Positions 37,538-39,124 of a stretch of DNA of 64,000 nt are shown piece by piece. The stretch comes from Escherichia phage EcF-vB. Numbering within the stretch: position 1 is the stretch's first letter; each line of letters starts with the position of its first letter. The position numbers and the translations under genes are program-made. The notes below the pieces were generated by a model. That model did not search any database, had not been told where the DNA came from, and was given only the letters and a program-made list of their open reading frames with translations. The stretch lies in sequence record PV683228.1, one strand, 5' to 3'.

Positions 37538-37616
37538 TGGTACTCCATATCGGATTCGAACCGATACATAACACAGATTTTAAGTCTGGCCTCTCTGCCA
37601 ATTGGAGTAATGGAGC
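37538..37616 (-). tRNA. tRNA with Leu anticodon TAA, short variable region (tentative)
   Basis: T-arm ATCGG-TTCGAAT-CCGAT, discriminator A, CCA encoded; anticodon loop read as CUUAAAA with imperfect stem; 5' boundary ambiguous. Confidence 0.5.
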
Positions 37617-37618
37617 AT

Positions 37619-37694
37619 TGGCGGGGGATGTTGGAATTGAACCAACTTCTTCGATTTCAAAGACCGAGGTTTTAACCTTGTAAACTAATCCCCT
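37619..37694 (-). tRNA. tRNA-Gln (anticodon TTG)
   Basis: acceptor AGGGGAT/ATCCCCC, D-stem GTTT/AAAC, anticodon stem TCGGT/ATCGA loop CUUUGAA, T-arm GTTGG-TTCAATT-CCAAC. Confidence 0.7.
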
Positions 37695-37702
37695 TTAAAT
37701 CT

Positions 37703-38260
37703 TTACTTTCTCAGTGGATGAATAAAGAATGCCAACATAACTCTTTCCCTTGAGAATGCTCTTTCTTCTGGGACAACACTTTTTAGTTTCCATCCAACAT
37801 AAATTCTCCAGTAAAACTGTTTACCAAAGACTTTAATTGATGGGATAAAAGCGAATAATCCCCAAGCATTACTGTTCCACATTAGGAGATAACCAGTCTG
37901 ATTATCTTCAGGGTCAGAACTTACGTTGATATTACCTTTCCACTTAGTAACATCTTTTACATCTCTTCCTAATACATGGTAAGAGAAGTTATAAGCTTTG
38001 TTTCTCCAGAGCCATCCGACTCTCTGCATGTAGACACCCAGCTTACCAATCTTTCTAATCTTAGCCCATCGTTTGACGTGGCCTTCATCACCATCAATCG
38101 GGTTGTCATAGGTCTCCATCCATCTGAATCCAAAAGGTAGATGTCCTTTCTTCTCACTGTAGAATGGAACTACAAAAGGTGCTAAGATGACTGCTAGGGT
38201 TGCTGCAATTGGGTCTAGTAAAGCTAAGAAAATCCATGAAGCATACTTCAAATATCTCAT
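37703..38260 (-). CDS. membrane protein (185 aa) embedded in tRNA array
   Basis: N-terminal hydrophobic helix (IFLALLDPIAATLAVILAPFVVPF); copy at 62672..63229 differs by one residue. Confidence 0.6.
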   Translation of the reverse strand: MRYLKYASWIFLALLDPIAATLAVILAPFVVPFYSEKKGHLPFGFRWMETYDNPIDGDEGHVKRWAKIRKIGKLGVYMQRVGWLWRNKAYNFSYHVLGRDVKDVTKWKGNINVSSDPEDNQTGYLLMWNSNAWGLFAFIPSIKVFGKQFYWRIYVGWKLKSVVPEERAFSRERVMLAFFIHPLRK

Positions 38261-38278
38261 TAAATAGCCTCTTTAAAT

Positions 38279-38354
38279 TGGCGCAGGATAAGGGATTCGA
38301 ACCCCTATTAACAGCTTCGTAGACTGTTGCTCTATCCATTTGAACTAATCCTGC
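38279..38354 (-). tRNA. tRNA-Arg (anticodon ACG)
   Basis: acceptor GCAGGAT/ATCCTGC perfect, anticodon stem ACAGT/GCTGT loop CUACGAA, T-arm AGGGG-TTCGAAT-CCCTT. Confidence 0.8.
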
Positions 38355-38468
38355 TTCCCTACGAGAACACCATACAGTTTTTCACAAACTTTGTTTTTAC
38401 GTCTGTTTAGGTATGACGCTCTAAACCTTTTTGCGATGGAGTTATTACTCATAGTGCTCTCCTCAAAT

Positions 38469-38546
38469 TGGTGTTCCAAGACGGATTCGAACCGTCACTA
38501 ATACAAGGTTTGAGCTTGCATCCTCTGCCAATTGGGATACTGGAAC
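38469..38546 (-). tRNA. tRNA with Leu anticodon CAA, short variable region (tentative)
   Basis: acceptor GTTCCAG/TTGGAAC, anticodon stem GCAAG/CTTGT loop CUCAAAC, T-arm GACGG-TTCGAAT-CCGTC, discriminator A. Confidence 0.55.
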
Positions 38547-38547
38547 A

Positions 38548-38622
38548 TGGTACTCACTAAAGGACTTGAACCTTTTTCTTCATCTTGTAAGGGTGGTGTT
38601 TTACCATATAAACTAAGCGAGT
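38548..38622 (-). tRNA. tRNA-Val (anticodon TAC), weak anticodon stem (tentative)
   Basis: acceptor ACTCGCT/AGTGAGT, D-stem GTTT/AAAC, loop CUUACAA identical to canonical Val loop but 3' stem strand mismatched. Confidence 0.5.
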
Positions 38623-38717
38623 GTGAAAGAGGTCTGAAGTTGTGCCGCTAACTCAACTCCGTGGAATTTGTTACGGTCTTCAGTTGACACCAGCGGTCTT
38701 TCACTTGACCTCTGAAT
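38623..38717 (-). ncRNA. structured non-tRNA RNA candidate within tRNA array
   Basis: ~95 nt between two tRNAs with perfectly complementary termini AGAGGTC...GACCTCT and internal CTGAAG/CTTCAG pairing; no T-arm; conserved at 62215..62309. Confidence 0.35.
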
Positions 38718-38794
38718 TGGTGCTGCTCACAGGACTCGAACCTGCATTTCCATCCTTACAAGGGATGTGTAATAGCCAATTATACGAAAGCAGC
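38718..38794 (-). tRNA. tRNA-Thr (anticodon TGT)
   Basis: acceptor GCTGCTT/GAGCAGC, anticodon stem CATCC/GGATG loop CUUGUAA, T-arm GCAGG-TTCGAGT-CCTGT. Confidence 0.8.
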
Positions 38795-38801
38795 ATTAAT
38801 T

Positions 38802-38876
38802 TGGAGCATCCAGAGGGAATCGAACCCTCAACCTCAGTTTGGAAGACTGTAATTTTCCCGTTTAAACTATGGATGC
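38802..38876 (-). tRNA. tRNA-Gly (anticodon TCC)
   Basis: acceptor GCATCCA/TGGATGC perfect, anticodon loop CUUCCAA, T-arm GAGGG-TTCGATT-CCCTC. Confidence 0.75.
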
Positions 38877-38882
38877 ACTAAT

Positions 38883-38958
38883 TGGTGGAGAAGCAGGGAA
38901 TTGAACCCTGTACTTAAGTTTGCAAAACTTATGTTTTAACCATGTAAACTACATCCCC
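38883..38958 (-). tRNA. tRNA-Ala (anticodon TGC)
   Basis: acceptor GGGGATG with G3.U70 wobble (Ala identity pair), anticodon stem TAAGT/ACTTA loop UUUGCAA, T-arm CAGGG-TTCAATT-CCCTG. Confidence 0.7.
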
Positions 38959-38964
38959 AATGTT

Positions 38965-39040
38965 TGGTACAGGTGGAGGGAATTGAACCCATCGTCTTAC
39001 TGATTAAGAGTCAGCCGCATAACCATTTTGCTACACCTGC
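38965..39040 (-). tRNA. tRNA-Lys (anticodon CTT)
   Basis: acceptor GCAGGTG/CACCTGT, anticodon stem GCTGA/TCAGT loop CUCUUAA; T-stem only 3 GC pairs. Confidence 0.65.
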
Positions 39041-39047
39041 ATTAATT

Positions 39048-39124
39048 TGGTACACCTAGAGAGATTCGAACTCACACTGAGCAGATTCTAAGTCTGCTGC
39101 CTCTACCAGTTGGGCTATAGGTGC
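39048..39124 (-). tRNA. tRNA with Leu anticodon TAG, short (5-nt) variable loop
   Basis: acceptor GCACCTA/TAGGTGT, perfect anticodon stem GCAGA/TCTGC loop CUUAGAA, T-loop TTCGAAT, discriminator A. Confidence 0.65.

Follow-up and report, generated by a model that had tools for sequence, protein, structure and literature searches.

The 64,000-nucleotide stretch of DNA analyzed here (to be called the window) comes from Escherichia phage EcF-vB (sequence record PV683228.1). Between positions 37,538 and 39,124 it holds three tRNA genes with leucine anticodons (UAA, CAA and UAG), which lack the long variable arm found in the tRNA-Leu of Escherichia coli. The locus raises the question whether these are true leucine tRNAs, and whether the absence of the arm has a meaning for the phage.

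The three are genuine genes, and they most probably encode working leucine isoacceptor tRNAs of the type I kind, which a Felix O1-like myovirus carries in its tRNA array. The genes, their fold, their identity nucleotides, their membership in a tRNA family, their conservation and the codon usage of the phage are established by the observations described below. They are also already known, being annotated in hundreds of phage records in GenBank.

Gene structure and leucine identity elements

The program ARAGORN calls all three genes on the minus strand (Table 1), and each of them exceeds the gathering score of the generic tRNA model, Rfam RF00005 (29 bits), with E-values from 5e-8 to 1e-10. The ARAGORN cloverleaves, together with a segmentation of our own, give each tRNA an acceptor stem of 7 base pairs (bp), U8 and A9, a D stem of 3 bp, a D loop of 11 nucleotides (nt) with the sequence C-AAYUGGYAGA, an anticodon loop of 7 nt and the T loop UUCGAAU, with the discriminator A73 followed by CCA. 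Counted with a 5-bp anticodon stem, the variable loop has 7 nt in Leu(UAA) (GUUAUGU), 6 nt in Leu(CAA) (AUUAGU) and 5 nt in Leu(UAG) (UCAGU). There is no extra stem-loop in this region, which places the three tRNAs outside type II (more than 10 nt forming a stem-loop). The original prediction had obtained the anticodons, the lengths of 77–79 nt, the variable loops of 5–7 nt, the D-loop motif and A73 by folding the sequences by hand, and ARAGORN, Rfam and the segmentation show that all of these are correct.

Table 1. tRNA-Leu genes and tRNA array of the window, and tRNA-Leu of other phages. Rfam, score with the generic tRNA model RF00005; R1, score with the covariance model of short tRNA-Leu described in the text.
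Feature	Position	Strand	Description	Evidence
tRNA-Leu(UAA)	37538-37616	minus	79 nt including encoded CCA; anticodon taa	ARAGORN; Rfam 47.5 bits; R1 69.9 bits
tRNA-Leu(CAA)	38469-38546	minus	78 nt including encoded CCA; anticodon caa	ARAGORN; Rfam 44.0 bits; R1 76.1 bits
tRNA-Leu(UAG)	39048-39124	minus	77 nt including encoded CCA; anticodon tag	ARAGORN; Rfam 57.3 bits; R1 87.3 bits
Phage tRNA array	36343-41472	minus	26 tRNA genes with small open reading frames between them; holds the three tRNA-Leu	ARAGORN
Mirror copy of tRNA-Leu(UAG)	61808-61884	plus		ARAGORN; inverted-repeat arm segment 100% complementary
Mirror copy of tRNA-Leu(CAA)	62386-62463	plus		ARAGORN; inverted-repeat arm
Mirror copy of tRNA-Leu(UAA)	63315-63393	plus		ARAGORN; inverted-repeat arm
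Klebsiella phage FBKp34 (Stephanstirmvirinae)			Leu-UAG 78 nt and Leu-UAA 92 nt	ARAGORN
Cronobacter phage CR9 (Vequintavirinae)			Leu-UAG 78 nt	ARAGORN
Mycobacterium phage BeanWater			three Leu, 74-76 nt	ARAGORN
Streptomyces phage StarPlatinum			Leu 76 nt and Leu 82 nt	ARAGORN
Erwinia phage phiEa21-4 (sister genus)			three Leu, 77-78 nt	ARAGORN

The features of the type I family (a Leu anticodon, the 3-bp D stem, a loop of the CCCAAYUGGYAG type, a variable loop of about 5 nt ending in U48, and A73) are complete in the CAA and UAG genes. The D arm of Leu(CAA) is UAUCCCAAUUGGCAGAGGA, and at the position of the CCCAAYUGGYAG-type family D arm Leu(UAA) has UCCAAUUGGCAG. The first base pair is G1.U72 in Leu(UAA) and Leu(UAG), and G1-C72 in Leu(CAA). 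A G1.U72 pair is not a hallmark of the phage genes, as E. coli leuZ carries it as well.

The host genes leuZ (UAA), leuW (UAG), leuX (CAA) and leuQ (CAG) of E. coli K-12 were fetched and aligned by segment with those of the phage. The tRNAs of the two sources share the anticodons UAA, CAA and UAG, the layout of the D arm, U8, A14, A15, G18G19, A20a, U48 and A73. The D-arm sequence is N13-AAYUGGYAGA in the phage (numbered A14 A15 Y16 U17 G18 G19 Y20 A20a G21 A22) and R13-AAUYGGUAGA in the host. In both, the D stem has 3 bp, position 13 is unpaired, and four nucleotides separate G19 from the 3′ strand of the D stem. U48 is the last base of the variable region in phage and host alike, directly before the T stem, and the T loop is UUCGAAU (with U54, U55, C56 and A58).

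The one large difference is in the variable region. The host tRNAs, with lengths of 85–87 nt, all carry the long arm, and their variable stem-loop of 10–12 nt is missing in the phage tRNAs. Smaller differences are A9 in the phage for G9, C32 for U32, A37 for G37 in Leu(UAG), and the AT-rich stems of the phage genes. Within the anticodon loops, the differences are located at positions 32, 37 and 38. A host origin of Leu(UAG) was rejected, as a blastn search of 5,426 complete E. coli genomes gave no match to it.

Leucine identity in E. coli is determined by A73, A14, the A15-U48 pair, and the G18G19/A20a region with its T-loop contacts, and the anticodon is not involved (PMC9976931; these elements are also listed in PMC6614811). 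The sequence and fold of the long arm are uncorrelated with leucylation, and tRNA-Leu with a truncated arm is still active (PMC9976931). Every E. coli identity element that can be checked in a sequence is present in the three phage tRNA-Leu. The bases of the U8-A14 and A15-U48 pairs are found in all three, from which we infer the pairing. G18G19 and A20a are in the E. coli register, and their T-loop partners (U55, C56 and U54-A58) are likewise present in each tRNA.

Conservation and the family of short-armed tRNA-Leu

Over its whole extent, the region 36300–41500 shares 95–96% identity with Felix O1-like phages (Felixounavirus), which infect E. coli and Salmonella, with matches in 349 phage records, and the tRNA array is colinear with the Felixounavirus genomes. 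Both Felix O1 (NC_005282/AF320576) and phage MBP4696116 have tRNA-Leu annotations for the three genes, whose lengths and places in the array correspond to those of the window. An annotated tRNA-Leu that is 100% identical to Leu(CAA) is found in wV8, Moogle, SUSP2 and many other phages. Leu(UAA) has at least 99% identity in 215 phage records and Leu(UAG) at least 95% identity in 85 records, while Leu(CAA) and Leu(UAA) have at least 95% identity in about 250 Felixounavirus records. In Erwinia phage phiEa21-4, from the sister genus, four of the seven acceptor pairs of Leu(CAA) are changed on both sides relative to the window gene and two more on one side, and all the pairs form. Function is therefore argued by the near-invariance of the genes in Felixounavirus, together with the compensated acceptor changes in phiEa21-4.

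A rearranged gene is present in the related Salmonella phage Si3. Its tRNA-Leu(taa) (positions 5001–5079 of the fetched locus) is a chimera, with the 5′ end from the Leu(CAA) gene and the remainder from the Leu(UAA) gene, joined in the common D-loop sequence. The acceptor stem is unpaired because its two ends derive from different paralogues. By its sequence, this gene looks like the product of a recombination deletion between two Leu paralogues.

The three genes belong to a larger family, which was searched for with a pattern made of the fixed D-loop motif, N-A-R at the anticodon, and the T loop. The pattern was applied to IMG/VR and to 185,579 species genomes. These collection scans cover at least 120 loci each, and they indicate presence and approximate proportions rather than giving a census.

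A family alignment was assembled from 90 distinct 74-nt members (57 viral and 33 genomic), which are gap-free, at most 84% identical to the window genes, and include no Felixounavirus. On a cloverleaf with a 5-nt variable loop, 98.2% of the cells of this alignment are paired, and 17 of the 20 pairs have changes on both sides. The covariation score is 0.899, as compared to 0.20 for shuffles and 0.10–0.16 for slid partners. U8, U48 and A73 are invariant in the 90 members, although the search pattern did not impose them, and A73 is found in 194 of 196 distinct members overall. In the viral loci, each of the 128 tRNAs that have this D arm carries a Leu anticodon, as do 124 of 125 in the genome loci; this is a weak check, since the pattern already required N-A-R.

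A covariance model, R1, was built from these 90 short tRNA-Leu and run on the array without filters. It ranks the three tRNA-Leu of the window first, followed by a tRNA-Arg with 53.7 bits, and for each of the three its gain over the generic tRNA model is 22–32 bits. The original prediction had allowed that covariance-model scoring might assign the genes to other isotypes or classify them as pseudo-tRNAs. Instead, RF00005 accepts them, and R1 separates them from all other tRNAs of the array by at least 16 bits.

In a sensitive blastn search, Leu(UAG) aligns over its full length and without gaps to tRNA-Leu genes that are annotated in phages of Klebsiella, Cronobacter, Mycobacterium and Streptomyces (see Table 1 for ARAGORN calls). 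Among the IMG/VR loci with the family pattern, 186 of 219 tRNA-Leu have lengths of 72–78 nt, and all 75 tRNA-Ser have at least 80 nt. Short forms make up 16 of 51 tRNA-Leu in another viral sample, whose loci were selected by a generic class I D arm, independently of leucine. The blastn matches in other phage groups and the IMG/VR scan rule out a short arm confined to Felix O1-like phages.

Some details are shared by the Leu(UAG) genes of the window, FBKp34 (6001–6078 of the fetched locus) and CR9 (5994–6071). All three have U.U at the second T-stem pair and G1.U72. Position 37 is A in the window gene, and it is G in FBKp34 and CR9, as in E. coli leuW.

Nor is the short arm confined to phages, as shown by the scan of cellular genomes and by synteny in Mycobacterium. 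There are 57 Actinomycetota among 80 matches listed for the family pattern, and the short tRNA-Leu is the sole tRNA within 8 kb in 82 of 120 loci, again among the matches listed. In Mycobacterium and other Actinomycetota it is a single-copy chromosomal gene. The 74-nt tRNA-Leu(CAA) of Mycobacterium occupies the same chromosomal neighborhood in at least 10 species, with flanks that are 75–90% identical over kilobases, which marks the gene as native and vertically inherited. The D arm of this tRNA is GUAUCCCAACUGGCAGAGGA, and 19 of its 20 positions agree with the D arm of the phage Leu(CAA). Outside Actinomycetota, short tRNA-Leu are found mostly in arrays of 4–34 tRNAs, for example in the cyanobacteria Microcoleus and Moorena, in Polyangiaceae and in Deinococcales, and these arrays may be mobile or phage-derived.

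By their sequences, the short-armed tRNA-Leu are a large natural family, present in many phages and on the chromosomes of Actinomycetota. The premise of the original prediction, that bacterial tRNA-Leu are normally of type II, holds for the host E. coli and is not universal.

Probable charging by the host enzyme, and the missing arm

Streptomyces coelicolor has one type I tRNA-Leu, with the anticodon CAA, beside four of type II, and its single leucyl-tRNA synthetase (LeuRS) charges both types (Fan et al., NAR 2019, PMC6614811). Such a tRNA can therefore be charged by a bacterial LeuRS. The charging of the type I tRNA needs at least five variable-loop nucleotides, including position 48, and is conferred by the leucine-specific domain of LeuRS (PMC6614811). 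The same work treats type I tRNA-Leu as a rarity of Streptomyces, and no paper discussing short-armed tRNA-Leu in phages was found in the literature searched. What seems to be under-appreciated is how common they are in phages, including phages of Enterobacteria, whose LeuRS reportedly cannot use such tRNAs. The suggestion in the original prediction of a functionally novel deviation was not borne out, as the genes are annotated in Felix O1 and hundreds of its relatives, and the short-armed form is a large family that has been characterized biochemically in S. coelicolor (PMC6614811).

Several points weigh against the three genes being working leucine tRNAs. The main evidence is the one direct test of E. 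coli LeuRS on a natural bacterial tRNA-Leu of type I, in which it did not charge a transcript of the S. coelicolor type I tRNA-Leu(CAA), and this enzyme is described as specific for type II, favoring the large variable region through its leucine-specific domain (PMC6614811). The uppermost pair of the anticodon stem of Leu(UAA) is a C.U mismatch, the only one in that stem. The T stem of Leu(UAG) contains a U.U mismatch, and this tRNA carries A37 where E. coli has G37, the site of m1G37. In the NCBI annotation of phage Si3, some tRNAs of the array are given as 'tRNA-OTHER' pseudogenes, including a differently sequenced Leu(tag). No expression, charging or modification data were found in the literature for the tRNAs of Felix O1.

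Decayed genes, tRNAs for another amino acid, or tRNA-like RNAs acting outside translation would be compatible with the observation that E. coli LeuRS failed to charge a natural tRNA-Leu of type I, and with the stem mismatches in two of the three tRNAs. A degenerate tRNA-like sequence in the same array (39484–39566) and the recombinant Leu gene with the broken acceptor stem in Si3 point in the same direction. However, the sequences are nearly invariant over hundreds of genomes, and the stem changes in the sister genus are compensated. All known E. coli leucine identity nucleotides are intact, and the tRNAs have no G3.U70 (for alanine), no long arm (for serine) and no G34 (for phenylalanine). 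We consider decay or a non-leucine identity very improbable.

The S. coelicolor tRNA may also be an imperfect guide to the phage tRNAs. It has C48 (PMC6614811), which breaks the A15-U48 pair needed by E. coli, and the Streptomyces-type genes have one extra D-loop nucleotide after G19 (AGCAGG as compared to AGAGG). With U48 and the D-loop spacing of E. coli, the phage tRNAs may behave differently from the Streptomyces tRNA toward E. coli LeuRS.

As working leucine tRNAs, the three would be transcribed together with the other genes of the array on the minus strand, and RNase P and 3′ exonucleases of the host would trim them, the CCA end being encoded. Leucylation would be carried out by the host LeuRS through A73 and the elements of the D loop and elbow, all of which are kept. 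In decoding, the UAA anticodon would read UUA and UUG, CAA would read UUG, and UAG would read CUA and other CUN codons. Once expressed and charged with leucine, the tRNAs would benefit the phage by supplying the leucine codons that it uses most and that the host serves least. The G+C content of the phage is 39%, and the leucine codons in 42 open reading frames of the window are TTA (27%), CTT (28%), CTG (15%), TTG (13%), CTA (11%) and CTC (6%). The leucine codon usage of the host favors CUG, and the host carries several copies of tRNA-Leu(CAG), for example leuQPV.

The missing arm might have a further use, on top of ordinary decoding, in the evasion of host defense: a Leu tRNA without the arm would survive effectors directed at it, and translation of the phage would continue. 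Two defense systems, Retron-Eco7 and Septu, cleave E. coli tRNA-Tyr in its variable arm, and the tRNA-Tyr of phage T5 is resistant because its variable loop is different (PMC13096335). Long-armed class II tRNAs also seem to be preferred by the abortive-infection toxin AbiEii, as by MenT3 (bioRxiv 10.64898/2026.01.19.700257). In every sample, the phage arrays keep the long arm on tRNA-Ser and nearly always on tRNA-Tyr, and tRNA-Leu is often short. The array of the window follows this pattern, with tRNA-Ser of 90 and 93 nt and a tRNA-Tyr of 88 nt, so that leucine alone has lost the arm. On the evasion view, leucine is the only class II family that could shed it, because seryl-tRNA synthetase needs the arm and bacterial tyrosyl-tRNA synthetase is thought to use it. 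Among the phages of enterobacteria, at least three groups that are unrelated to one another (Ounavirinae, Vequintavirinae and Stephanstirmvirinae) have short tRNA-Leu. The E. coli tRNA-Leu genes examined are all long and Leu(UAG), as noted above, is unmatched in E. coli genomes. The differences from the host in the anticodon loops (positions 32, 37 and 38) would also be in keeping with evasion. The class of nuclease-evading phage tRNAs (van den Berg 2023; Azam 2024) is marked by a difference from the host tRNA at the place that a defense nuclease recognizes or cuts, and by a resistance to cleavage that rescues infection. The phage tRNA-Leu do differ from the host in the missing arm and at positions 32, 37 and 38, and no nuclease using these places in tRNA-Leu was found.

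Other observations speak against this explanation, however. No nuclease or transferase acting on the variable arm of tRNA-Leu was found, and tRNA-Tyr is the only known target of defense nucleases that cut this arm (PMC13096335). The Gifsy-1 terminase acts on tRNA-Leu(CAG), which the phage does not encode, and cuts it in the anticodon region; HepS cuts Thr, Ile and Ser tRNAs; and the bacterial Schlafen that has been studied cuts the anticodon arm and has no class II preference. None of these three fits as the reason for the short arm. Moreover, Actinomycetota have the short form as an ordinary gene, in one copy on the chromosome, so that it needs no defense rationale, the tRNA-Leu(UAG) of T5 keeps its long arm, and some phages carry both short and long tRNA-Leu. 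Evasion as an added role, and with it the nuclease resistance suggested in the original prediction, is therefore unlikely.

In a broader form of this idea, a horizontally shared type I tRNA-Leu would be kept in unrelated phages as a pan-phage adaptation, for the reason that it lacks the arm which nucleases of the Septu and retron type, or nucleotidyltransferases of the AbiE and MenT type, grip or cut. This requires efficient charging by enterobacterial LeuRS, and we regard it as unlikely.

For the window itself the finding is of little consequence: these are long-annotated genes of a well-known phage group, most likely with the usual role of phage tRNAs. The wider pattern, with about a third of the tRNA-Leu short in the viral sample selected independently of leucine, may be of more interest. 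From three strongly conserved tRNA-Leu of type I, in phages that infect E. coli and Salmonella, one would predict that E. coli LeuRS charges suitably built type I tRNAs, opposite to what has been reported (PMC6614811). If charged well, they would provide a natural minimal scaffold for leucine identity, and a clean probe for defense attack on class II tRNAs via the long arm.

The tRNA array and comparison with known systems

The window contains 44 tRNA genes in total by ARAGORN. It has a near-perfect inverted duplication, in which 36900–49235 is mirrored at 52041–64000 across a spacer (49236–52040), with 12 collinear arm segments that are 99–100% complementary. As a result, every gene between about 36.9 and 49.2 kb recurs in mirrored form, and the three tRNA-Leu have identical copies on the plus strand. 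The duplication junction is spanned by none of 255 related phage records, and known genomes are colinear only with 50137–53800. Judged from the sequence, the inverted duplication probably reflects either a fold-back error of the assembly or a genome that is defective, and it lies outside the biology of the tRNAs. A promoter scan of the array gave a count of sites not above chance, from which nothing is concluded on transcription units.

Next to the array, a 471-residue open reading frame (41638–43053, minus strand) has DUF2828 and DUF7788 domains and is annotated as 'RNA-binding protein' in Felix O1. A DUF2828 protein also adjoins the tRNA array of Klebsiella phage FBKp34, and Streptomyces phage StarPlatinum has a 'Ro-like RNA-binding protein' about 3 kb upstream of its first tRNA. 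A DUF2828/Ro-like RNA-binding protein may be a recurrent partner of phage tRNA arrays.

The degenerate sequence at 39484–39566 (minus strand) is a tRNA-like remnant between tRNA-Ser(tga) and tRNA-Arg(tct). It has a cloverleaf-like fold, with an anticodon-type loop of 9 nt, a T loop of 3 nt and an energy z-score of -2.0. ARAGORN makes no call here, there is no Rfam match at E up to 1, and the score with the short tRNA-Leu model is 12.7 bits. The tRNA-Ser(tga) itself (39380–39469, minus strand) is weak, with 33.2 bits in the generic model and 39 bits in the tRNA-Sec model (threshold 47), and its counterpart in phiEa21-4 is annotated as a 'possible pseudogene'. Directly 5′ of tRNA-Leu(UAG) is a long hairpin (39130–39219, minus strand), whose only match, to a model of a plant microRNA precursor, is at chance level (24.9 bits as compared to a threshold of 52), and which may be a processing or terminator structure. 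The order Gln(ttg)-Leu(taa)-Gln(ctg) at 37457–37694 (minus strand) resembles the E. coli operon metT-leuW-glnU-glnW-metU-glnV-glnX (696430–697133), where a tRNA-Leu also lies beside Gln tRNAs. This likeness may be a coincidence.

Among known systems, the closest are the Felixounavirus phages Felix O1, wV8, Moogle and PHB11. They have the same array order and annotated lengths, their tRNA-Leu sequences are 96–100% identical, and there is no substantive difference in the tRNAs. The mirror-image duplicate is present only in the window and in no related record.

Phage T5 resembles the Felix O1-like phages in having a tRNA array in an E. coli phage, and its tRNA-Tyr has an altered variable region that gives resistance to a defense nuclease. 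The documented resistance concerns tyrosine, however, and not leucine. The single tRNA-Leu of T5 has 85 nt, which rules out T5 as a precedent for a short tRNA-Leu.

The tRNA-Leu of animal mitochondria also lack the long arm, and their identity relies on A14 and A73 (PMC9976931). They are served by a dedicated LeuRS and their D and T loops are often degenerate, whereas the phage tRNAs keep G18G19 and the T loop UUCGAAU.

The type I tRNA-Leu(CAA) of S. coelicolor and other Actinomycetota shares with the phage tRNAs the 5-nt variable loop, the D arm of the CCCAAYUGGCAG type, A73 and U8-A14. Genes of this kind are among those from which R1 was built, the model that gives the phage genes 70–87 bits. 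The S. coelicolor tRNA has been shown to be leucylated by a bacterial LeuRS, whereas the phage tRNAs have their setting in Enterobacteria, whose LeuRS did not charge it. Moreover, S. coelicolor has one type I isoacceptor, CAA, and the phage has three, with variable loops of 5–7 nt.

Engineered E. coli tRNA-Leu without the arm (Larkin 2002 and Asahara 1998, as summarized in PMC9976931) combine identity elements of the E. coli type with the lack of an arm, as the phage tRNAs do, and in that summary they are reported as substrates of E. coli LeuRS. Those tRNAs are laboratory constructs, whereas the phage genes are natural and conserved.

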